Virus record (IMG/VR): IMGVR_UViG_2690316278_000015 | Direction: 5' to 3' (one strand) | DNA length: 21,808 bases | DNA from: a virus | Taxonomy: Duplodnaviria > Heunggongvirae > Uroviricota > Caudoviricetes | Shown: one piece after another, positions 6,272 through 20,542 of the stretch | How positions within the stretch are numbered: the stretch's first letter is position 1 | Layout of the letters: every line of letters begins with the position of its first letter | The notes under the pieces: model-generated | The model's database searches: none | Told to the model about the DNA's origin: nothing | Seen by the model: only the letters and a program-made list of their open reading frames with translations | Made by a program: the position numbers and the translations under genes

Positions 6272-6329
6272 TTCAGAAGCAAATAATTTTGAAACGTATG
6301 ATAGTGATTACAGGACAGTACTACTATCT

Positions 6330-6849
6330 NNNNNNNNNNNNNNNNNNNNNNNNNNNNNNNNNNNNNNNNNNNNNNNNNNNNNNNNNNNNNNNNNNNNNNN
6401 NNNNNNNNNNNNNNNNNNNNNNNNNNNNNNNNNNNNNNNNNNNNNNNNNNNNNNNNNNNNNNNNNNNNNNNNNNNNNNNNNNNNNNNNNNNNNNNNNNNN
6501 NNNNNNNNNNNNNNNNNNNNNNNNNNNNNNNNNNNNNNNNNNNNNNNNNNNNNNNNNNNNNNNNNNNNNNNNNNNNNNNNNNNNNNNNNNNNNNNNNNNN
6601 NNNTCNNNNNNNNNNNNNNNNNNNNNNNNNNNNNNNNNNNNNNNNNNNNNNNNNNNNNNNNNNNNNNNNNNNNNNNNNNNNNNNNNNNNNNNNNNNNNNN
6701 NNNNNNNNNNNNNNNNNNNNNNNNNNNNNNNNNNNNNNNNNNNNNNNNNNNNNNNNNNNNNNNNNNNNNNNNNNNNNNNNNNNNNNNNNNNNNNNNNNNN
6801 NNNNNNNNNNNNNNNNNNNNNNNNNNNNNNNNNNNNNNNNNNNNNNNNN
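6330..6849. other. Masked/unknown sequence (N run, 520 nt, with two called bases 'tc' at 6604-6605)
   Basis: Continuous n characters. The 58-nt unmasked island 6272-6329 is open in one + frame (SEANNFETYDSDYRTVLLS), so coding likely continues across it. Confidence 0.99.
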
Positions 6850-8859
6850 ATGACAAAGACGGGTACTCTAAGTATCTATGCAAAGAACGCTACAACCGCC
6901 TGGACACGCATATATACCGCTACACAGATGGACGGGCGATACGTACCCCTTACACGTACCATCAACGGCCATGCACTCACGGCCAATTTAGTACTGAACA
7001 GTGAAGATACAGGTTCAGTACCTGATACACGTACTGTGAATGGTAAGCCTCTAAGTGAGGATGTAGTACTTACCAGTACTGATACCGGCTCTGTACCAGA
7101 TACACGGACAGTTAATGGTCATGTACTCAGTGAAGATATAGTACTGAGTAGTGAAGATACAGGTTCAGTACCTGACACGCGTACAGTGAACGGTCATGTA
7201 CTTAGTGAAAATGTAGTACTGAGTAGTGAAGATACAGGTTCAGTACCTGATACACGTATGGTCAACGGTCATGTACTCAGTGAGGATGTAGTACTTACCA
7301 GTACTGATGTTGGCTTAGGGAAGGTTACAGATGATGCCCAGCTTACGATAGCAGGTAATCTAAGTGATCTGGGGGACGTGGAAGAAGCACGTATTAACCT
7401 TGCTGTTTACTCAATGGATGAAGTAGATGCAGAGGTAACGGCTTTAGCTGACAGTATTACTTCCCTTGATTCCGCTTCCATGAAGAAAGCGAGTAACCTT
7501 TCTGATCTATCCAGTCTCTCTACAGCACGTACTAACCTACAGGTGAACCGTTTGACTCAGGGTGCTACGTACACCGATCTGATGAGTAATGACCTGACTA
7601 ACCGTATCCGAATTCAGGATAACGGGGCATGGGGTGCAAGTACTGGTACTGGATGGATTGCTTTAGGTATAGGTCAGGGGGGGACAGGGGCTACAGATGC
7701 TTTGAGTGCTCGCCTAAACTTTCAGGTGGATCGCTTTAATCAAGGTAGTAATTTAACAACTATTAAATCCGCTGATTCTTCCGCTGCATTAGTGGTTTAT
7801 GATGGAGGGCAATGGGGTTCAGCTACATATATTGCGGGTGCTTTCACTGGCTGGAAAGCATTAGCAATTCCGCAGGGCGGTACTGGTGTTAAGACTCAGG
7901 CTGAGTTATGGCCTGCGATTCGTCCTACGGGTGCAACTTCTTTAGCAGGAGATCCTGTCTCTGATTCTGACGCGACTACCAAACGCTGGGTTGAAAACTT
8001 GCTGAGTAGTCGTACTTCAGTTAGTCCTCAATGGGATGTTATTGCTTCTTCCCCTTCCTCTACGGCAATTGGTAGTTATGTAACTGGAGGGCGTATTCGT
8101 TCGATATGCAACATTGGTACATCAACTGAAATATCTGGTGGTTTTCGGGTTGGTAAAACGATGGGACAGACTGGACAGGCTGATCTCACCCTTTTTATTT
8201 CTGAAAATGGTGCAGAGGATAAACTATGGGGGCTAAAAGGGCCGACTGGAACGATCCTAACTGATGTTCAATCAGGATGGATGACTAATACCGCTGTTTC
8301 GGGACCGACAGATGCCAATACCATCACCTTTAACGGTATGTATGCAGGGCCAGGTGACTCAGGTATTAACTATAGTGAAAAATATTCCCCTTTATTGCAC
8401 ATGCAAAGATACCCAGGGGCAAATCGCTCTCAGCTTCAGATAGACGGTGGTGGTACTTTAAGAGTACGAGGCGGGAACGGTACAACATGGTTTGGATGGT
8501 TAGTAATGCAAGCTCAAGGTACATCAGGTCGTGAGTTTAAAAGAGACATAACTCCAGCAAATCCAGTTGAAGCATTAGATCGGATAATGTCACAAGATTT
8601 AGTAACGTTTATCTACAAGGATGATGAACAAGAAAGGGTTAGGTTTGGTGTTATCGCCGAAGATGCTGAGTTGACTGCTCCGCAGTACATTAAGCATGAT
8701 GAAGAAACAGTTGAAATAGAAGGGGAGATTGTCACTCGTGATCATCCACGTGTTGATTTAAATCCAATAGTGATGGACTTGATGGGAGCTATTCAAGCCC
8801 AACAAGAAGAAATTAATCAGCTAAAAGATTTAGTACAACAGCTATTAAATAATAAATAA
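6850..8859 (+). CDS. Tail-fibre-like protein with Stf-type repeats and C-terminal intramolecular chaperone (peptidase S74-like); candidate neck/collar whisker
   Basis: First ATG after the N run is 6850, but the frame is open back into the gap, so the true start may be upstream. Five tandem 25-aa repeats (TRTVNGHVLSEDVVLSSEDTGSVPD). C-terminal ~110 aa matches the endosialidase/T5-pb1 chaperone pattern (S-G-R-E-F-K-R-D-I...ALDRI...RFGVIAED) with terminal coiled coil. Confidence 0.8.
   Translation: MTKTGTLSIYAKNATTAWTRIYTATQMDGRYVPLTRTINGHALTANLVLNSEDTGSVPDTRTVNGKPLSEDVVLTSTDTGSVPDTRTVNGHVLSEDIVLSSEDTGSVPDTRTVNGHVLSENVVLSSEDTGSVPDTRMVNGHVLSEDVVLTSTDVGLGKVTDDAQLTIAGNLSDLGDVEEARINLAVYSMDEVDAEVTALADSITSLDSASMKKASNLSDLSSLSTARTNLQVNRLTQGATYTDLMSNDLTNRIRIQDNGAWGASTGTGWIALGIGQGGTGATDALSARLNFQVDRFNQGSNLTTIKSADSSAALVVYDGGQWGSATYIAGAFTGWKALAIPQGGTGVKTQAELWPAIRPTGATSLAGDPVSDSDATTKRWVENLLSSRTSVSPQWDVIASSPSSTAIGSYVTGGRIRSICNIGTSTEISGGFRVGKTMGQTGQADLTLFISENGAEDKLWGLKGPTGTILTDVQSGWMTNTAVSGPTDANTITFNGMYAGPGDSGINYSEKYSPLLHMQRYPGANRSQLQIDGGGTLRVRGGNGTTWFGWLVMQAQGTSGREFKRDITPANPVEALDRIMSQDLVTFIYKDDEQERVRFGVIAEDAELTAPQYIKHDEETVEIEGEIVTRDHPRVDLNPIVMDLMGAIQAQQEEINQLKDLVQQLLNNK
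6952..7326 (+). repeat. Five tandem in-frame 75-nt coding repeats (phage tail fibre repeat)
   Basis: Units at 6952, 7027, 7102, 7177, 7252; near-identical at nucleotide level, each encoding TRT[VI]NG[HK]xLS[EA][DN]xVL[TS]S[TE]DTGSVPD. Confidence 0.9.
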
Positions 8860-9742: not shown

Positions 9743-10137
9743 GAGGTGATATCGAATTAAAGTACTTTTGTAAGATGGTTAACAAAAGAGGCTTATCACC
9801 TGAAGAATACTTTAGTTTAGATCCTGATGTACTCAATATGCTTATGATCTACGATACTTTTATAGAACCATCCGGTACGCAGATTGAAATGATGAAACAT
9901 GCGTACCAGTGTTACTACACCACTATCAGTAATGGCAACCTAACACCAGAAGCAAGGAAAAGTATCAAGGTACAGGATTTTGATTTTCTTGATGTGCTTA
10001 GTGATAGTACTAAGAGTACTTCAGAGAAAGCTGAAGAAAGAAAATTAAAAACTAAAGAGGCTCAATCCAATGATATTAAATCTATAGGGGAGTTAATTAA
10101 ATCTCAGGTATTAGGAAAGAAAAAGAATGGCAAATAA
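9431..10137 (+). CDS. Tail assembly chaperone frameshift product (gpGT analogue), via -1 shift at 9733-9739
   Basis: -1 frame ORF (9727-10137; ORF track shows it from ATG 9775) overlaps the 3' end of the G-like ORF and ends 11 nt into the tape measure gene, matching the conserved G/GT arrangement of long-tailed phages. Confidence 0.55.
9733..9739 (+). promoter_or_regulatory. Programmed -1 ribosomal frameshift slippery site A_AAA_AAG (G to GT-like fusion)
   Basis: Heptamer A AAA AAG in the zero frame of ORF 9431-9742, 1 nt before its stop. The -1 frame is open from 9727 to 10137, so slippage would yield ...EVEKK-VRGDIELKYFCKMVNKRG... Same heptamer as the E. coli dnaX site. Confidence 0.65.
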
Positions 10138-12478
10138 TAATAGAATACGTGTAGATATTACGGGTGATTCTTCCGGTTTACAGCGTGCTTTAAGGTCTGG
10201 TACTGAATCATTAGAGGAATTTGGTAGTACTGCTGGTGGCATTGTTGAAGAGTTCACAGGCCGANNNNNNNNNNNNNNNNNNNNNNNNNNNNNNNNNNNN
10301 NNNNNNNNNNNNNNNNNNNNNNNNNNNNNNNNNNNNNNNNNNNAATCATTAGAGGAATTTGGTAGTACTGCTGGTGGCATTGTTGAAGAGTTCACAGGCC
10401 GAATAACTGGTATGGCTGGCGGGTTCGGTACTGCTATGACCGGGATCGCGGGTGCTGCGGCTATTGGTATTGGTGGCCTGGCAGCATTAGTAGAATCATC
10501 ACGTGAATATGTGCGTGAAATGAACCAGATCAGTAAGAGTACCGGATTGTCCGTGGTTCAGTTACAACAGCTATCAGCGGCGTTTAGTGGCCTCGGTCTT
10601 GAGATTGATAAGTTTGGTGATTTCAACAAGGATACCTTGGATAAGCTCGGTGATGCTTTTCGTGCTGGCGGTGGTGTATCCGATGATCTTAAAGAATATG
10701 GACTCAACCTACAGGACTATAACAAGTACTTAAAACAGGCTGATGGTGGTATGCAGGCTGTGATCCACACCTTTTACGCCATGCGTGATGCAGGTAAATC
10801 ACAGAGTGAAATAGTTAACGTAATGGAAACGTTAGCCAGTGACTCAAGCCACATGATTAGTACTCTTCAGCAGTTCAATAATGAGGCTCAAGCTACAGCC
10901 TATATCCAGTCACAAAATGCTGAAGTAACTAATGATGCTGCTGAAAAATATGCTGAATTCGATAAAAACCTTGGGAAACTTACTACCAGCATTAAAGGTA
11001 CTATTGCTGATGGCCTATCACCTTTAGTTAATGCCATGAACAGTGTCTATGATGCTGCAAATCAAAAACCTCACGAGGCAGGTTTGTTTGAAGATCTGAA
11101 TGAACGTATTAAAACTTCCAAGGGTTCTCTACAGGATATGTTGGATATCTGGGAAAAATTACGTACAGCAGGGGCATTAAACTACCAGGGTGCAGCACTC
11201 AATACTGGCATCATGGATGATAAGGGCAACAAGGGTAATGAGTTCGCTCAGGCTAAGGCACGTTTAGAAGAACTGGCAAACAACCTAAAGTCCGATGTTG
11301 CGGTTGCTACCGCTCCTACTGGCGGATGGGTTGATCAGGCAAAAGAAGCTGAAGATGCAGCGAAGAAGTTAGAACAACAACGTAAACAGGCAGAAGCGGC
11401 ACAAAAGGCGGCAGATGCAAAACGCCTACAGGCTCAACGTAATCTGGAAGCTGCTCTTGCTCAAGTTGGGGAAGATGGTTTTCAGGTACGTCTACAGCAG
11501 TTCGACAGACAACAAAAGGCACTTCTTAAAACCATCACCGATAGTGCTCAAGTACTCGGTATCAATCCTGATGAAATGCTAAAGAACGCTACTGCATATG
11601 GTGCTAAACAACGTACTGATTTACTGAATTCAATGGTTGGTTATCAAGATCCTAATCAGGGTCTGAAAGATACCAATGCTCTTATTGGTTCCGGTCTACT
11701 CAATGACAATCAGAAGGGGTATCTGGCACAGCAACAGAATCAGCGTATCAATGGTGGTAATCCATTAGCCTATAACGATACCGATCAGAAGTTGAAAGAT
11801 AACGCTGATGCTATGAATGCTGAACTTCAGCAGAATGAGTTGTTGCTGAAAGGCCATGAGGACTATGAGAAACGTAAAGCTGAGATCACGGCAAAGTACA
11901 ATGCACAGGCCATCCAAATCAGTAACCAGAATGCACAGGATCAGTTAAGTATCTTCTCAAGTACTGCACAGTCACTATCACAGGGCATGGTTGATGCGTT
12001 TGGGGAAAGTAGTGGGGCTGCACAAGCTGCATTTACCCTAAGTAAGAGCATAAGCATTGCACAGACAGTACTTTCAATTCAGTCAGCATTGGCCCAAGCA
12101 CTCGCTACCCCTTGGCCAGCTTCATTGGCAAACTATGCACAAGTACTTTCACTTGGTATGTCGATTATTAGTACTGCAAAGGGTGCTGCTGCTGGTCAGT
12201 TCCATGGCGGGGTAGATGAACTACCAGCAAGTTATGACAACAAATCATTTGTACTTAAGCAGGGCGAGAGAGTGGTGCAGCCTGAAGCGAATAAGAAATT
12301 AACAGCATTCTTGGATAAACAAGAAGGTGGAAGTACTTCAGGTGATATTACCGTTAACGCACCATTGATCATCCAGGGTGATGTAGCTGATGATGACAAG
12401 AAATTTAATGAGATGCTTAAGAAACACGCCAATAGTGTTTCTCAAGCTGTGAGAAGTAGTCAAAAACGTAATACATAA
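10127..12478 (+). CDS. Tail tape measure protein
   Basis: 783-aa ORF (as assembled) following the chaperone pair; Gly/Ala-rich hydrophobic segment (ITGMAGGFGTAMTGIAGAAAIGIGGLAAL), extended Gln/Ala/Lys-rich helical regions, hydrophobic C-terminal segment. Contains N run 10265-10343 flanked by identical 59-nt copies, so true length may be about 46 aa shorter. Confidence 0.9.
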   Translation: MANNNRIRVDITGDSSGLQRALRSGTESLEEFGSTAGGIVEEFTGRXXXXXXXXXXXXXXXXXXXXXXXXXXXSLEEFGSTAGGIVEEFTGRITGMAGGFGTAMTGIAGAAAIGIGGLAALVESSREYVREMNQISKSTGLSVVQLQQLSAAFSGLGLEIDKFGDFNKDTLDKLGDAFRAGGGVSDDLKEYGLNLQDYNKYLKQADGGMQAVIHTFYAMRDAGKSQSEIVNVMETLASDSSHMISTLQQFNNEAQATAYIQSQNAEVTNDAAEKYAEFDKNLGKLTTSIKGTIADGLSPLVNAMNSVYDAANQKPHEAGLFEDLNERIKTSKGSLQDMLDIWEKLRTAGALNYQGAALNTGIMDDKGNKGNEFAQAKARLEELANNLKSDVAVATAPTGGWVDQAKEAEDAAKKLEQQRKQAEAAQKAADAKRLQAQRNLEAALAQVGEDGFQVRLQQFDRQQKALLKTITDSAQVLGINPDEMLKNATAYGAKQRTDLLNSMVGYQDPNQGLKDTNALIGSGLLNDNQKGYLAQQQNQRINGGNPLAYNDTDQKLKDNADAMNAELQQNELLLKGHEDYEKRKAEITAKYNAQAIQISNQNAQDQLSIFSSTAQSLSQGMVDAFGESSGAAQAAFTLSKSISIAQTVLSIQSALAQALATPWPASLANYAQVLSLGMSIISTAKGAAAGQFHGGVDELPASYDNKSFVLKQGERVVQPEANKKLTAFLDKQEGGSTSGDITVNAPLIIQGDVADDDKKFNEMLKKHANSVSQAVRSSQKRNT
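10265..10343. other. N run (79 nt) inside the tape measure gene, flanked by identical 59-nt direct copies (10206-10264 and 10344-10402)
   Basis: Sequence AATCATTAGAGGAATTTGGTAGTACTGCTGGTGGCATTGTTGAAGAGTTCACAGGCCGA occurs on both sides; copy spacing 138 nt (in frame). Confidence 0.95.
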
Positions 12479-12488
12479 GAAAGCCCAG

Positions 12489-13061
12489 TTAGGGATTTTC
12501 CGTGTGATAAGACAAATATTGTGAAAGAGAAGATGAAAGGGTATAGAGATTGTAATACTCTTCCCGCAATAATTTAACTTTAGGTGGTGAGTATTTAATA
12601 TTGTATGCAAGCTGTGTTGAAAGAGTACGTAATCTCGATAATGAATAATAACTCTTTACGATGGCATCTACTTCTTTTTTTGGGAGTGATGCTAATTTTT
12701 CTAATTGGGAATAATATACATCATCATGCAAATAAGAAACGGCAGTTGCTACTCTTTTAATAGCTTCTGTATCTTCAGTTGGAAGAGGAATACATATTTC
12801 ATATGTGCCTAACACCTGAGACTCATCGCCACCAGTAGCAAGAGCTAAAAGGTTATTGTTGATTTCGCTCAATAAGATTACACGCATCTTAAAAACATCA
12901 TCTGAACTTTCTTTCCATTTATCATATGCGTTATAGCCTATTTGGCCTGCAAATAACAACATAGCAACGATGACGGATGCAGCCTGCCAATCAAGCCTGT
13001 TAAAAAAAATACGAATCGAGGTTTTTAAATAAATAAAGAAAGAAGATATTCGAGGTAACAA
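12489..13061 (-). CDS. Opposite-strand moron: membrane-anchored protein of unknown function (candidate superinfection-exclusion / injection-blocking protein)
   Basis: 190-aa minus-strand ORF filling the whole 584-nt space between the tape measure stop (12478) and the gpM-like start (13063). Start is TTG at 13059-13061 with AAGGA 7 nt upstream; alternative ATG starts would truncate the predicted N-terminal TM helix (WQAASVIVAMLLFAGQIGY). About 33% GC in two 100-nt samples, lower than flanking tail genes. No plus-strand ORF covers the interval. Confidence 0.55.
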   Translation of the reverse strand: MLPRISSFFIYLKTSIRIFFNRLDWQAASVIVAMLLFAGQIGYNAYDKWKESSDDVFKMRVILLSEINNNLLALATGGDESQVLGTYEICIPLPTEDTEAIKRVATAVSYLHDDVYYSQLEKLASLPKKEVDAIVKSYYSLSRLRTLSTQLAYNIKYSPPKVKLLREEYYNLYTLSSSLSQYLSYHTENP

Positions 13062-13062
13062 A

Positions 13063-13620
13063 ATGGCATCCTTTTCAAATCAAATAAAAGTAACGAACTT
13101 TCAAATTAAAAGTACTGAACCGATCTATTCTAATCAAACATGGACAGGTCAACGTATCATGAGAAGTACTGGAATTCAATACTATCAAATTCAGTTCACC
13201 CTTAATTTTAATCCTGCATCACTAAATGAAGTGAATAGCTTTTTAGCTCAATATGCACAGGGCAAACCTTTCACTATGTCATTGGGGCTTGCAGGTACAT
13301 ATTACGGTAAACAGACTGGTGCAGTAACCGCTACTGCTCTCACTAAACCGGGTAATATGGTTGTACCTATCAGTACTAACACATTAGCTGTGGGTGAGTG
13401 GGTACAGTTTTCCAATCACAATAAGCTATATCGAATCGTAGAACGTACCAGTACTTCAATTACTATTTTCCCTGCTCTACAAAATACAGTACAGGCAAGT
13501 GAAGCACTCAAATATAACAATCTCATGATCGAGGCTGTATTAGATCCAGACAATGATTATTCATTGCCTATTGGGAACATCATGAATATTACATTGAAAG
13601 CAACGGAGAATATCATCTAA
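13063..13620 (+). CDS. Minor tail protein, lambda gpM-like (distal tail)
   Basis: 185-aa ORF first after the tape measure gene on +. Segment YQIQFTLNFNPASLNEVNSFLAQYAQGKPFTMSL resembles the gpM core (Y.V.L.....E.....FL.....G...F.W). Stop overlaps next start (TAATG at 13618-13622). Confidence 0.5.
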   Translation: MASFSNQIKVTNFQIKSTEPIYSNQTWTGQRIMRSTGIQYYQIQFTLNFNPASLNEVNSFLAQYAQGKPFTMSLGLAGTYYGKQTGAVTATALTKPGNMVVPISTNTLAVGEWVQFSNHNKLYRIVERTSTSITIFPALQNTVQASEALKYNNLMIEAVLDPDNDYSLPIGNIMNITLKATENII

Positions 13621-14243
13621 TGGACTCAGGTATATATACTAATGCTAATCTTCTTAAGTACTGGAAGTTAGTCAGAGGTACAACCAAGACAAGATTAACA
13701 CTAATGGAAATTATGAGCTTAGGCGTTAATGTTACTTGTTTTGATGTACTACCAAAAGGTACTAATGGTTTTCACTGGACGGATTCACTAATTGATATAG
13801 ATCTGGATGGTTATAAGTACATAAGTTTCCCCGACATTATCAGTGGTTCATTACCTTCATATTCTGAACAAAAGGGCATGTCTAATGATGCTATCAATTT
13901 TAAAATTAGCAATGTAAACGCCTCGGTTCGTGCTCTTGCCCTTGGTGGTTTCTTGAAAGATGCACAGATGAATATCAAGTTAGTAATTCTCAATCCATAT
14001 GATAGTACTGTAATTGATTCAATGCTCATGTTTACGGGGTTTATTGACTATGTACAGGCAGTAACTGATCCAAATCAGAAGCAAAACGAAATGACTATAT
14101 ATGTGAATTCTGTCTATAAGAAATTAGACAGACAACCTGCATTAATTGCCGCCAACTCAGTATATCAATCTTACTATAGAAATGATGAGTACTTTAGTCT
14201 GTTAGGTCAAGTTAATCAAAATCAGAACTGGAAATACAAGTAA
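13620..14243 (+). CDS. Minor tail protein (gpL-position; no Cys cluster seen)
   Basis: 207-aa ORF, translationally coupled on both sides (ATG overlaps upstream stop; its stop overlaps next ATG at 14243). Assignment by gene order only. Confidence 0.4.
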   Translation: MDSGIYTNANLLKYWKLVRGTTKTRLTLMEIMSLGVNVTCFDVLPKGTNGFHWTDSLIDIDLDGYKYISFPDIISGSLPSYSEQKGMSNDAINFKISNVNASVRALALGGFLKDAQMNIKLVILNPYDSTVIDSMLMFTGFIDYVQAVTDPNQKQNEMTIYVNSVYKKLDRQPALIAANSVYQSYYRNDEYFSLLGQVNQNQNWKYK

Positions 14244-14676
14244 TGAAAAATCTACATAATGAAGTAATGAGTATTATTCAGTACTCAATTGATAACCCAT
14301 ATAAGTATGGTGATAACGATTGCAACATTATAGTACTACGCCTTATTGATTTAATTAATGGTACTACACAGTTAACTAATCGCCAGTATTCGAGCATTAA
14401 AGAAGGTATAGCAGGTTTAAACAAGGAAGGATGGAACCATACAGGGGAAATTGTTGAAGCGTACTGTAAGCCAGTACAAGCCACTATAGACGGTGATATC
14501 TGGTTAGATCCTGACAACCCATTAATTATGGCAGTAGTGGCATCTGGTCGGGTACTTGGAGTAAATGCTGNNNNNNNNNNNNNNNNNNNNNNNNNNNNNN
14601 NNNNNNNNNNATGATGGTTTCGAACTTCAACCAAAACCAACAGAGGGAACATATTACAGAGTAAGGAAACAGAGAG

Positions 14677-14684
<8 letters not shown>
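14243..14684 (+). CDS. Tail assembly protein with NlpC/P60-like motif (lambda gpK C-terminal-domain analogue), interrupted by N run
   Basis: N-terminal GDNDCNIIVLRL resembles the NlpC/P60 catalytic-Cys motif of gpK (G.TDC..LFRDA). ORF runs into N run 14571-14610; an open frame resumes (DGFELQPKPTEGTYYRVRKQRDG*) ending at 14684 and overlapping the J-like ATG. No JAB/MPN (H-x-H) motif seen. Frame continuity across the gap cannot be checked. Confidence 0.45.
14571..14610. other. N run (40 nt)
   Basis: Continuous n characters. Confidence 0.99.
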
Positions 14685-18142
<3,458 letters not shown>

Positions 18143-18299
18143 TAAATAATTCAGGGATTATTAACTGTAACCTCATTTCAAAAGGATACATAAATGAAAT
18201 CTAATGAACGTACTTTCAATAGTACCAGTACTAACCCATTCAGTATTAGCGGAAAAGAAACAATTGGAATGAAGAAAAGGATTTACAGGAGTAAGAGCT

Positions 18300-18596
18300 A
18301 TGGCACAGGGATTACAATGTTGGAATGCAGCGGGTGTATTAGTAGTAGATCTGACTGATTATAACATACGTTTTATGGGTACTTATACTGTCAAGGCTAC
18401 TTCTGCACAGACCTATACTGTATCAGTACCAAATATGAAAACTACAGGCTGGTTTGTACACTATGCCCCCGCCAGTGATACCTTTAATGAGTGGTCAGCC
18501 TTTTGTAATAATGGGTCATTTACTGCGGTTTATTTGCCAACATATGCACCGTTAGCTGGTAACTACACTTTTAACGTATATAAGTGGACGGCGTAA
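18300..18596 (+). CDS. Hypothetical protein, paralogue 1 (single copy of a ~100-aa domain shared with the next gene)
   Basis: 98-aa ORF with AGGAG SD. N-terminus MAQGLQCWNAAGVLVVDLTDYN matches the N-termini of both halves of the downstream protein. Aromatic/Cys-rich. Confidence 0.6.
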   Translation: MAQGLQCWNAAGVLVVDLTDYNIRFMGTYTVKATSAQTYTVSVPNMKTTGWFVHYAPASDTFNEWSAFCNNGSFTAVYLPTYAPLAGNYTFNVYKWTA

Positions 18597-18597
18597 G

Positions 18598-19254
18598 ATG
18601 GCAGGTTTCGAGGTATATAATTCAGCGGGTGCACTGACTATAGATAGTACTAACAAGTCGATAATGACGGGTGCAGTAAAGGCCATGGGAAATCTAACTG
18701 ATACGGGATACTACACAGGCTTTACCTGTGCCTTCGGTAATGGTGGATCGCTCGGTTTCGTTATGCCATCAGTAGTAGCTAACAGGAACACAACACAGTA
18801 CTGGTTCCAGATACAGAAAGACGGGGCATGGTGTTTCCCTGGTGCCTATATGTTCCAGCCTGGCATGGGCAGGTTCATGACAAGTAGTCACACGGCTACC
18901 CCCACATCTGGTTTTCTTGATGTGTTCAGTGAAGAAGGTACTTTAATCTGGTCTGCTGCATCAGCGGCAACAATGCCACGTATCAGGGGATTTTTGACAG
19001 CACCTGCGGCTACCGATCTCAGTACTGCCATTACGGTAACGTCTCCAGTAGCTGATCCCTGGTTCTGCTGGTCACAATGTCCGGGGAACATATCAGATGA
19101 TGGTACAGTAATTGGGTACTCTGGTCTGGTTATCAGGCGTAATTCCAGTACTTCATTCAGTCTACAGTACGTTTCAAAGAACCAGAAAACCTACCGCCAG
19201 GCAATGGGGAATAATGGTATCCAGATAGCATTGGCGACATTTACAGGGTATTAA
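18598..19254 (+). CDS. Hypothetical protein, paralogue 2 (internal tandem duplication of the same domain)
   Basis: 218-aa ORF starting 2 nt after the upstream stop. Residues 1-20 (MAGFEVYNSAGALTIDSTNK) and about 106-125 (SGFLDVFSEEGTLIWSAASA) both match G[FL]xV[YFW]xxxGxLxxDxT. Confidence 0.6.
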   Translation: MAGFEVYNSAGALTIDSTNKSIMTGAVKAMGNLTDTGYYTGFTCAFGNGGSLGFVMPSVVANRNTTQYWFQIQKDGAWCFPGAYMFQPGMGRFMTSSHTATPTSGFLDVFSEEGTLIWSAASAATMPRIRGFLTAPAATDLSTAITVTSPVADPWFCWSQCPGNISDDGTVIGYSGLVIRRNSSTSFSLQYVSKNQKTYRQAMGNNGIQIALATFTGY

Positions 19255-19255
19255 T

Positions 19256-19297
19256 ACAATAACAATAACAATAACAATAACAATAACAATAACAACA
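19256..19297 (+). repeat. Hexanucleotide microsatellite (ACAATA)x6 plus one degenerate unit (ACAACA)
   Basis: Six perfect ACAATA units at 19256-19291, then ACAACA, then AAGGGA SD and ATG 19311. Intergenic. Confidence 0.95.
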
Positions 19298-19310: not shown

Positions 19311-19583
19311 ATGGATATCGGTGCTATTTTAGCTCTTGTTATTTCTGGATGCGTATTCCTTTATACTATCTTTAGAGATAATACAAAGGATACGAATGAT
19401 CTATTAACTCGCGTTGCTACTCTTGAAACTACCATTGCTGTACTGGAAAGTAGTATTTCCCGTATTGAGGATGATCAGGATAAGATGAGAGATACACTAA
19501 GTAAACTGGAAACACAAATCCATGAACTTGATGTTAAGATTGAAAGGATTATTGCAATTCTTCAGCAGAAACAACGACCATAA
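19311..19583 (+). CDS. Small membrane protein with one N-terminal TM helix and a C-terminal coiled coil (holin-like or i-spanin-like; function uncertain)
   Basis: 90-aa ORF; hydrophobic residues 3-20 (IGAILALVISGCVFLYTIF), then charged heptad-like region. Good SD. Convergent with the endolysin gene. Confidence 0.5.
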   Translation: MDIGAILALVISGCVFLYTIFRDNTKDTNDLLTRVATLETTIAVLESSISRIEDDQDKMRDTLSKLETQIHELDVKIERIIAILQQKQRP

Positions 19584-19633
19584 AAAAAGGCATAGTATGT
19601 CATTCGTACTATGCCTTTTCTTTATTTGTTTTT
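19582..19633. terminator. Bidirectional rho-independent terminator between convergent genes
   Basis: A7 tract (19582-19588), stem GGCATAGTA (19589-19597) / TACTATGCC (19607-19615) with 9-nt loop, then T-rich tract TTTTCTTTATTTGTTTTT. Reads as hairpin plus U-tract on either strand. Confidence 0.7.
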
Positions 19634-20071
19634 AAGTACTGCAATCATGGAATTCACACGGTTTGGTGTCTGCCTGTACCATAGAGAACACTTAGCCTGT
19701 TTAATTGCTTCAAGGTAATCATGTGCTTTCAGGGCTGCTAACATCTTACGGAATTTCTTCACCCCGCCAATACCTAACTGGAAGGTCATGATAATAATAA
19801 AATCATTCCAGTCATCGGGAAGATTTAACCCTAATGTCTGTACCTGCATAATTGTTTTGGCTAAATCGCGAGATAGTAACTTGTCTGCTTCGCTTTCAGT
19901 AATGCCAGTACTAAAATCTTCTCCCGCCTGAATTAAGTGACCATATCCAATAGTACTACATCCTAAACTATCAGCATATGGATAGAATTTCCCATTTCTG
20001 AAGTACTTCAAATTTGCCTGATACTCTTTAGTACCTTCATATTCTTTTAATCGTGTTTTTAAATCGCTCAT
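19622..20071 (-). CDS. Endolysin, T4-lysozyme-like (glycoside hydrolase family 24), no signal/SAR segment
   Basis: 149-aa minus-strand ORF. Motifs align with T4 lysozyme: catalytic Glu in LKEYEG, Asp in YADSLG, STIGYGH (T4: YTIGIGH), C-terminal SLWYRQTPNRV (T4: SRWYNQTPNRA). N-terminus is hydrophilic. Confidence 0.9.
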   Translation of the reverse strand: MSDLKTRLKEYEGTKEYQANLKYFRNGKFYPYADSLGCSTIGYGHLIQAGEDFSTGITESEADKLLSRDLAKTIMQVQTLGLNLPDDWNDFIIIMTFQLGIGGVKKFRKMLAALKAHDYLEAIKQAKCSLWYRQTPNRVNSMIAVLKNK

Positions 20072-20081
20072 TTACTAAATA

Positions 20082-20100
20082 CCTATAATGAATTTATAGG
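20082..20100. promoter_or_regulatory. Perfect 7-bp inverted repeat CCTATAA-N5-TTATAGG in the divergent region between endolysin and downstream + operon (candidate operator or mRNA hairpin); contains a TATAAT hexamer
   Basis: Arms 20082-20088 and 20094-20100 are exact reverse complements. TATAAT at 20084-20089. Right arm overlaps the AGGA SD of the gene starting at 20108. Confidence 0.5.
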
Positions 20101-20107
20101 AATATTT

Positions 20108-20542
20108 ATGATGAGTGAATGGAAATACTCGGATGATTGGAGCGAGGAGGAAATGTTATCCGGTGAATATGCTGGTTTCGTTTATATCTTTCAGTTTGAG
20201 GATGGTTCTAATTATGTCGGTGCTAAGCAAATCTATCAGCGGGTTAAGGATGCGAGAAAGCTAAAGCCCACTTCAAAGGAAAATGGCTGGCGTGAGTACC
20301 TCAGTAGTTCCAATGTCGTTAAAAACAAAATTGAAAATGGTGAACAGTACTCAAAAACGATTCTATGGTGCTTCGCAACTATGCGAGAGGTAATGATTGT
20401 AGAGGCAATACTGATCCTTCATCAGATGCTTAAACCGGAATGTTTGAATCTGGCAATGATGAGTAAGATTAGATCACCAAATGCAAAGGATAAAAAAAGA
20501 CTACTCGGAATAGTACAGGAACTATTGGAGTACTTGAATTGA
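20108..20542 (+). CDS. Small GIY-YIG-like nuclease domain protein (putative; possible homing-endonuclease relative lacking a DNA-binding extension)
   Basis: 144-aa ORF. GFVYIFQFEDGSNYVGAK fits G-I-Y-x(9-11)-Y-I-G spacing (cf. I-TevI GIYQIKNTLNNKVYVGSAK); Arg 7 residues after YVG; later Glu (MREVMIVEAIL) and Asn (ECLNLA) in positions expected for the catalytic Glu/Asn. The usual His after the Arg is not evident. Confidence 0.45.
   Translation: MMSEWKYSDDWSEEEMLSGEYAGFVYIFQFEDGSNYVGAKQIYQRVKDARKLKPTSKENGWREYLSSSNVVKNKIENGEQYSKTILWCFATMREVMIVEAILILHQMLKPECLNLAMMSKIRSPNAKDKKRLLGIVQELLEYLN

Follow-up and report, generated by a model that had tools for sequence, protein, structure and literature searches.

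We propose that two adjacent small genes in the late tail operon of a prophage, ORF-A and ORF-B, encode a heterodimeric receptor-binding module that docks on the tip of the J-like central fibre of the tail and whose receptor is possibly YncD/PqqU, a reading to which we assign a probability of about 70%. The pair is a diverged allele of a family recognised in the literature since 2021 as the YncD-type receptor-binding protein (RBP) locus; the RBP assignment stems from papers of 2021-2026, and their functional claims rest on receptor genetics and structure prediction. The initial annotation of this DNA had guessed at receptor-binding accessories or tail-tip subunits, and that guess is now backed by homology to RBP-2 and RBP-1 of phage IsaakIselin, by synteny and by fold.

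The window, by which we mean the whole stretch of 21,808 nucleotides that was analysed, is a siphovirus late structural module on the + strand, in which a large terminase, a portal, a fused protease/major head protein, a major tail protein, a tape measure and a distal tail protein precede the J-like gene. Two adjacent ORFs of 98 and 218 aa had been annotated directly after the latter, and their coordinates and shared strand are exact. The locus reads as follows:

14723-18142, + strand: gene for a J-like central fibre or tail tip (Pfam Phage_Tail_Tip 2e-20, with fn3 and Phage-tail_3; PHROG 31 'central tail fiber J' 1e-58).
18287-18291, + strand: Shine-Dalgarno AGGAG of ORF-A, 8 nt 5' of the ATG, as read from the sequence.
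18300-18596, + strand: ORF-A, 98 aa, small subunit, homologue of IsaakIselin RBP-2 (QXV80561); an N-terminal hairpin followed by a six-strand β-sandwich.
18598-19254, + strand: ORF-B, the large subunit at 218 aa and a homologue of IsaakIselin RBP-1 (QXV80560), in Pfam DUF8377 (PF28254).
19256-19295, no strand: (ACAATA)6.7 hexanucleotide repeat (TRF score 80), between ORF-B and the next gene.
19311-19583, + strand: 90-aa ORF with an N-terminal TM helix and a coiled coil, the last gene 5' of the terminator (PHROG 739, Rz-like spanin, 3e-5; weak DUF2730).
19585-19619, + strand: terminator-like stem-loop of 15 pairs with a T run, facing a convergent lysozyme gene.

The start of the J gene is uncertain because of masked runs of N, and its unmasked S. 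sonnei homologue is 1100 aa long. A spacer of 157 bp separates the J stop from ORF-A, and a single base lies between the ORF-A stop and the ORF-B start (TAAGATG); within the late tail operon, the two genes are conserved together and coupled in translation. From the gene order and the terminator-like hairpin, J, ORF-A, ORF-B and the 90-aa ORF look like a single transcription unit, the last of them being probably lysis-related. The hexanucleotide repeat, whose spacer differs in length by multiples of 6 between S. sonnei contigs, is part of the locus but probably not of its function. A 54-aa ORF at 18194-18358 is also called in some assemblies, with four nucleotide differences to judge it by.

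Compared with loci that are 96-98% identical, ORF-A carries 6-7 synonymous and 0 non-synonymous codon differences, and ORF-B 18-19 synonymous and 6 non-synonymous ones; as the differences are mostly synonymous, both are real genes under purifying selection. Homologues number in the dozens for ORF-B and well over 100 for ORF-A. Exact protein matches place the element as a prophage adjoining mipA/gapA, in loci that include HE616528.1, other chromosomes and draft contigs. The NCBI label on the protein identical to ORF-A is Shigella sonnei, and 768 indexed blocks of an assembly collection contain the exact ORF-B sequence, the contigs examined being Shigella sonnei chromosomes or draft contigs. Searches at the DNA level, with the locus and with the head genes, came back empty from both the phage collection and complete E. 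coli genomes. IS elements interrupt the J gene in many S. sonnei genomes, so the receptor module may be non-functional in its present host.

Within the BASEL collection, allelic variants at a 'bona fide RBP locus' match the terminal receptor, and IsaakIselin and IME347 use YncD (PMC8594841); a recent preprint ties four locus-encoded families to FhuA, BtuB, LptD and YncD at >30% identity and >99% coverage (bioRxiv 10.64898/2026.04.02.716166). The cryo-EM paper on PqqU, which is YncD, names the IsaakIselin proteins QXV80560 'RBP-1' and QXV80561 'RBP-2', presents an AlphaFold-Multimer prediction of an RBP-1/RBP-2 dimer on the extracellular face of open PqqU, and gives a third gene, SIP-1, the role of an exclusion factor in the periplasm (PMC12124388). 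ORF-B aligns with RBP-1 at 36% identity over 218/217 aa (E 8e-45), which passes the preprint's threshold for the YncD type, and ORF-A with RBP-2 at 32% identity (E 2e-12). Most of the enterobacterial phage homologues listed are 33-44% identical to ORF-B at 100% coverage (59-93% for the most distant), and identity to the phages with published YncD dependence is 32-37%. ORF-B belongs to PHROG 4524 (1.6e-54) and ORF-A to PHROG 7961 (9e-16), both without assigned function, and PF28254 is annotated on the ORF-B gene and on all of its matches. The initial annotation did not recognise the family; this is true to the PHROG and Pfam libraries searched, which attach neither a family name nor a function to it (DUF8377 included), but not to the papers that have assigned it as an RBP.

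Among annotated phages, tblastn finds the pair always adjacent and always beside a J-like gene. Its carriers include HK639 and relatives together with Drexlerviridae such as IsaakIselin, IME347, Henu7, PHB17, NBD2, Skenny and KMI8; it adjoins gpJ in HK639, IsaakIselin, IME347, KMI8, KLB16, SG01 and ENT39118, and the two subunit genes are neighbours in each of the eight related phage loci that were inspected. Further afield, the ORF-A profile, run against 1.84 billion representatives, returned 198 relatives, including P0277, a 313-aa single chain of three hairpin-led units, two of which match the profile. Multi-stretch matches in P0282 (a helical repeat protein) and P0304 (an FN3 array) were dismissed, and P0235, a gene call that spans the end of J and runs into an ORF-A homologue, was uninformative. 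In the N4-like Acinetobacter podovirus XC38, a 2479-aa tail protein with a J-type ending is followed by genes that resemble ORF-A (PHROG 7961, 1e-11) and ORF-B (PHROG 4524, 1.5e-32). A 134-aa XC38 protein was considered as a bridge between ORF-A, through fold, and the N-terminal half of ORF-B, through sequence, and rejected, since two different adjacent genes had been matched, which is synteny and not a bridge. Our literature search found no papers on HK639-like phages (Eeyore, Flotzy and others) and no virion proteomics of homologues.

What is repeated across the pair is demonstrably a β-hairpin of ~15 residues, which opens each of three units, and which has a counterpart at the end of J:

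18089-18139, + strand: C-terminal hairpin of J, an in-register relative of the ORF-A hairpin and its proposed docking partner.
18309-18356, + strand: hairpin copy 1, ORF-A residues 4-19, GLQCWNAAGVLVVDLT, the most conserved segment of ORF-A, with model strands at 5-8 and 14-18.
18604-18651, + strand: hairpin copy 2, ORF-B residues 3-18, GFEVYNSAGALTIDST, aligned by hhalign with the ORF-A hairpin and of low column entropy.
18910-18957, + strand: hairpin copy 3, ORF-B residues 105-120, GFLDVFSEEGTLIWSA, which opens the second half of ORF-B, has the lowest entropy of the protein and beats all shuffles.

A conserved AASAxTMPR comes directly after the third copy. Pairwise BLASTP of the three units gave weak N-terminal matches alone, so profiles were needed: hhalign profile-profile scores from alignments of the two families (113 relatives of ORF-A, 73 of ORF-B) were judged against 30 column shuffles. 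ORF-A and ORF-B matched with a probability of 86-89% and E of 2-5e-6, over 16-20 columns only. By unit, ORF-A scored 35.2 against the N-terminal half of ORF-B (shuffles 11.9 ± 2.1; E 5e-6, 16 columns) and 19.6 against the C-terminal half (shuffles 12.5 ± 2.1), and the two halves scored 21.3 against each other (shuffles 12.3 ± 2.1). This above-shuffle similarity spans just 11-20 residues, and with the hairpin columns removed all three unit pairs fell to shuffle level in hhalign.

The initial annotation had described a ~100-aa domain in triplicate; the hairpin rises above shuffles in every pair of units, and nothing beyond it does. Likewise, the N-terminal signature on which that description drew is present three times, but in its literal form it fits only ORF-B 3-18, as ORF-A has C in place of V and the third copy carries one extra residue and lacks the D/T. 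A relaxed signature, [FLYMIV]x[VCAI][WYF][NDSR]xxGx[LIV][VIT], has 3 matches in the six-frame translation of the window, all at the known sites, although a pattern derived from those same three sites makes its specificity weak evidence. The order of strands in AlphaFold2 (AF2) secondary-structure strings reaches further for one pair: ORF-A resembles ORF-B(1-103) with a z of 3.7, and 0/300 block shuffles were as good, whereas the C-terminal half of ORF-B gave z of 0.5 and 1.1 against the other two units. An ungapped strand-pattern correlation was dropped as non-specific (best offset 42). That whole units descend from one ancestor is plausible where ORF-A and the first half of ORF-B are concerned, and unproven for the second half; to speak of a paralogous pair that carries a ~100-aa domain in triplicate was to overstate the case.

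In 9/9 pair-carrying phages, the window included, J ends ...LRV(R)(M/F/L)GL(W/F), the longer pattern being about xIxxYDxNNxLRVRMGL(W/F), whereas LptD-type and FhuA-type J proteins have different endings; a single type of J C-terminus thus accompanies the pair wherever it occurs. The end of J and the start of ORF-A align in hhalign with a score of 23.5 against 10.2 ± 1.9 for shuffles (E 5e-4). The conserved hairpin of each subunit co-varies with the last ~20 residues of J, and the bodies are variable. In the T1 virion, for which a cryo-EM structure exists, the C-terminal region of J is unresolved (PMC11945409).

In both proteins, conservation peaks in the hairpins. Across the 113 ORF-A sequences, G4, Q6, W8 and D17 are invariant and G12, D20 and R24 nearly so, and outside the first 24 positions only G45 and Y94 are comparably conserved. 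In ORF-B, column entropy is lowest at residues 1-20 and 104-128; around the third hairpin, S104, G105, W118 and A120 are invariant, and Y106, L107, D108, V109, G114 and L116 nearly so. The domain had been described as Cys-rich, which does not hold for the family: C161 of ORF-B is the only nearly invariant cysteine, and many relatives of ORF-A have Ala in place of its C7. AF2 models both proteins as all-β with good scores (pLDDT 88.5 and pTM 0.82 for ORF-B, pLDDT 90 for ORF-A), each unit being a two-strand hairpin followed by six to seven strands, and ORF-B packing its two hairpin-led halves into one body. The hairpins are the lowest-pLDDT parts of the monomer models. At the level of fold only, the ORF-B model appears to resemble a solved phage RBP that binds an outer-membrane protein. 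Neither family profile drew a meaningful match from PDB sequences, and marginal matches of the ORF-A profile to antibody VH domains (E ~0.01) were taken as generic β-sandwich noise.

Does each subunit then touch the receptor? It could be argued that ORF-B alone is the receptor-binding protein and that ORF-A is an adaptor to the J tip which makes no receptor contact. [quoted passage not shown] However, in the published AlphaFold model RBP-2 sits alongside RBP-1 on PqqU's extracellular face, the ORF-A body (residues 25-90) is as variable as that of ORF-B, and lectin-like receptor-binding knobs are among the fold neighbours of ORF-A. We consider a pure adaptor unlikely, and favour a receptor-binding module to which both subunits contribute.

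Small genes 3' of fibre genes are often chaperones, and the pair could in principle be Tfa-like assembly factors that serve J or a side fibre and are missing from the mature virion; in favour of this, the literature search brought up no virion proteomics of any member. Against this, Pfam, PHROGs and NCBIfam give no Tfa, gp38 or gp57-type similarity, the fold neighbours of the pair are structural fibre, spike and RBP domains with no chaperones among them, and receptor specificity goes with the allele present at the locus in one phage family after another, all of which makes a chaperone role improbable.

Still less credence can be given to a superinfection-exclusion or receptor-masking system expressed from the prophage; the initial annotation had entertained a receptor-masking or exclusion factor alongside proteins of the stf/tfa/lom/cor type. 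The idea draws on the neighbourhood, since cor, llp, SIP-1 and Rtp45 occupy it in related phages, and on the element being a prophage. Yet the cor-like lipoprotein of LeonhardEuler (bas13_25), SIP-1 and the lipoprotein Rtp45 all have an export signal, and ORF-A and ORF-B, with the N-termini MAQGLQCW and MAGFEVYN, have no signal peptide, lipobox or TM segment; nor is there a match to a masking or exclusion family, to stf/tfa/lom/cor-type proteins in Pfam, PHROG or NCBIfam, or to anything in PADLOC. Furthermore, the genes sit inside the late tail operon, where no promoter-like site of their own rises above background. Neither suggestion finds support.

How might a receptor-binding module of this kind work? 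ORF-A and ORF-B would pair as a heterodimer, in keeping with the AlphaFold-Multimer prediction for their IsaakIselin counterparts, with the conserved hairpins making invariant contacts with the C-terminal hairpins of J, between the subunits, or both. The variable β-sandwich bodies would then touch the extracellular face of an outer-membrane β-barrel, and this contact would commit the phage to DNA ejection. That the barrel is the TonB-dependent PQQ transporter YncD/PqqU is, for the prophage allele, a moderate bet made from sequence: YncD/PqqU dependence and blocking by PQQ are known only for IsaakIselin, IME347 and a few relatives (PMC8594841; PMC12124388; bioRxiv 10.64898/2026.04.02.716166), and at 32-44% identity to the nearest phage homologues found, or 32-37% to the two with published YncD dependence, with the variable regions being the presumed receptor contacts, the receptor here may differ.

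A more speculative arrangement, which we hold only tentatively and think doubtful as it stands, is that the three hairpin-led units of ORF-A and ORF-B form a pseudo-threefold cap, in which each hairpin pairs with one terminal hairpin of a trimeric J. Such a cap would convert the threefold J fibre into a single asymmetric receptor-binding head, and equivalent three-unit forms could be recognised in the 313-aa P0277, in the 101 + 229-aa FhuA-type pair and possibly in the 321-aa RBP of phage Oekolampad. If this were true, the hairpin would be a docking code common to YncD-type, FhuA-type and perhaps LptD-type RBPs, as well as to the tail protein of N4-like podoviruses, and a shared code would explain why these cassettes pass so readily from one phage family to another in company with the last residues of J.

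Regardless of the geometry, the gpJ-adjacent locus is currently the best genome-only predictor of the outer-membrane receptor of small siphoviruses, and the diverged, prophage-borne allele described here extends the YncD/PqqU-type family from lytic T1-like phages to temperate phages of Enterobacteriaceae; the XC38 locus extends it to N4-like Acinetobacter podoviruses. If the hairpins are indeed docking elements, receptor modules would be swappable as a cassette of J end, ORF-A and ORF-B. The part that a specialist might find new is the hairpin architecture common to RBP types, together with its match to the J terminus.

Several known systems can be set beside this one. One is T5 pb5, a single large chain encoded elsewhere in the genome, for which no sequence or fold match was found, but the principle is shared: an outer-membrane transporter is bound by a separate RBP that sits at the end of the pb4 central fibre and is no part of the fibre chain (PMC10038345).

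The closest is the pair of IsaakIselin (Bas10) and vB_EcoS_IME347, which has the same sizes (~100 + 217 aa), the same adjacency to J, a J that ends ...LRVRMGLW/F and three hairpins. The setting differs, as may the receptor at such low identity. Here and in HK639 the pair is oriented with J, whereas in Drexlerviridae it is convergent to it, and the host element here is a temperate, IS-riddled S. sonnei prophage. The Drexlerviridae cassette carries SIP-1, a TonB-C-terminal-like protein with a signal peptide, after the pair, whilst the prophage locus has no SIP-1: tblastn of the window detected no homologue (best E 0.4), and no exclusion-type PHROG matched the downstream ORFs, including the genes beyond the window in the identical S. 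sonnei locus L003, whose downstream translations, read by eye, have no obvious signal peptide or lipobox. Without SIP-1 or an exclusion-type gene, the locus is not a complete copy of the Drexlerviridae cassette. HK639 and KLB16 also carry other genes at the SIP-1 position, SIP-1 being an accessory of the cassette and not a trait of the RBP family. The 90-aa ORF of the prophage was considered as a SIP-1 or Cor homologue and rejected, the tblastn search of the window with SIP-1 being empty.

For the LptD type, the Oekolampad RBP (Bas18, bas18_0025, 321 aa) has been solved bound to LptDE (PDB 9RPT), with residues 1-25 modelled from AF3, since they belong to a stretch for which the isolated RBP gave no cryo-EM density (PMC12685063). 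Its length is close to that of ORF-A plus ORF-B (98 + 218 = 316 aa), and the two-gene module could be a split equivalent of this single-chain type. Detectable homology is another matter: both families and both ORF-B halves gave E of 0.04-0.17 and probabilities <1.5% in hhalign against 59 LptD-type RBPs, and PHROG 1265, which holds the Oekolampad RBP and Rtp44, did not match ORF-A or ORF-B.

The FhuA-type locus of T1-like phages, here that of LeonhardEuler, differs in its receptor, FhuA, and in a J that ends ...SVRDASGRLRVQIGRLTGSW*, but shares the two-gene layout, with bas13_0023 (101 aa, PHROG 557) and bas13_0024 (229 aa, PHROG 425) accompanied by the cor-like lipoprotein. Hairpins lie at equivalent positions: MAYGISTWDTNGV; MSYGAFIDVNGNPF; and WGMAIWDASGKLVLT, at about residue 112. 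The large subunit has nothing in common with ORF-B beyond these hairpins (best E 0.0017), whereas its small partner and ORF-A are remotely homologous (hhalign probability 94.8%, E 5.5e-8, 43 columns). This comparison suggests a common architecture for RBP families that have been called 'unrelated' and, in the case of the small subunit, a detectable ancestry.

The prophage is undergoing decay in its S. sonnei host. The J-like gene, which encodes the central tail fibre, is interrupted by IS elements in several S. sonnei genomes (L004, L005, L007 and L008; equivalent to window 10127-18142), in one the tape measure gene is split by an IS, and the elements responsible carry HTH_Tnp_1 or rve transposases. 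In these genomes the two small downstream genes, ORF-A (98 aa) and ORF-B (218 aa), are unbroken and identical. The window copy of J is itself partly masked, with a run of N at 17832-17916 that has an identical 15-residue peptide on either side, and it reads as 1139 aa as against 1100 aa in unmasked contigs; this flanking peptide points to a short tandem duplication within the distal part of the fibre. Eight further N runs are present in the window.

The window has several other features of note:

6289-8859: 856-aa ORF that separates the head genes from the major tail gene and carries a Peptidase_S74 domain (intramolecular chaperone)
12489-13061, minus strand: 190-aa ORF separating the tape measure gene from the distal tail protein gene
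18194-18358: putative 54-aa ORF in the spacer between J and ORF-A, overlapping the start of ORF-A in a different frame
19256-19295: perfect hexanucleotide repeat, (ACAATA)6.7, between ORF-B and the next gene
19311-20542: lysis region, with a 90-aa transmembrane and coiled-coil ORF, then a convergent phage lysozyme gene, then a SegE-like homing endonuclease gene

The repeat looks like a polymorphic VNTR. Among S. sonnei contigs that are identical elsewhere, the spacer between ORF-B and the next gene measures 45, 51, 63 or 87 bp, changing in 6-bp steps; the window holds six full ACAATA units and a further S. sonnei copy of the locus (L003) one more, and at non-sonnei loci of 96% identity the array is not expanded. 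Beyond it lies a scattered lysis region carrying an inserted homing endonuclease, a GIY-YIG protein of 144 aa. The lysozyme of this region is 149 aa long and lacks a signal sequence, and the 90-aa ORF that converges with it matches DUF2730 and an Rz-like spanin, both weakly.

Peptidase_S74 domains are typical of tail fibres and spikes, and so the placement of such an ORF (883 aa in unmasked contigs, the window copy being partly masked) between head and major tail genes is unusual for a fibre-like gene. The 190-aa minus-strand ORF, possibly a moron within the tail operon, has no PHROG match; gene calls in those contigs read across this position include it, at 190 aa but at 157 aa in two.

The 54-aa ORF is likewise called in some assemblies. 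The spacer that holds it is lineage-specific, since in phages HK639, SG01 and ENT39118 the ORF-A homologue begins at, or overlaps, the J stop. Relatives of the module lie at these loci:

L014 4001-4290 and L015 4001-4290: ORF-A homologue (MSGLQCWDASGKL...) of Cronobacter phages SG01 and ENT39118
L021 4593-5657: same three-part cassette as in the window, carried by VB_ApiP_XC38, an N4-like Acinetobacter podovirus of the Schitoviridae
L156 5120-6061: P0277, a 313-aa single-chain relative with three hairpin-led units, on a metagenomic contig

In SG01 and ENT39118 the homologue, which neither GenBank record annotates, starts slightly upstream of the J-like gene stop. The XC38 cassette joins the J-type ending of a 2479-aa tail protein to an ORF-A-like gene of 134 aa and an ORF-B-like gene of 218 aa, the former with an additional hydrophobic N-terminal stretch that may reflect a miscalled start. 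The contig bearing P0277 is phage-like, its called genes almost devoid of recorded Pfam matches and with no J-type families recorded among them; P0277 itself may be a fused form of the two-gene ORF-A/ORF-B module.
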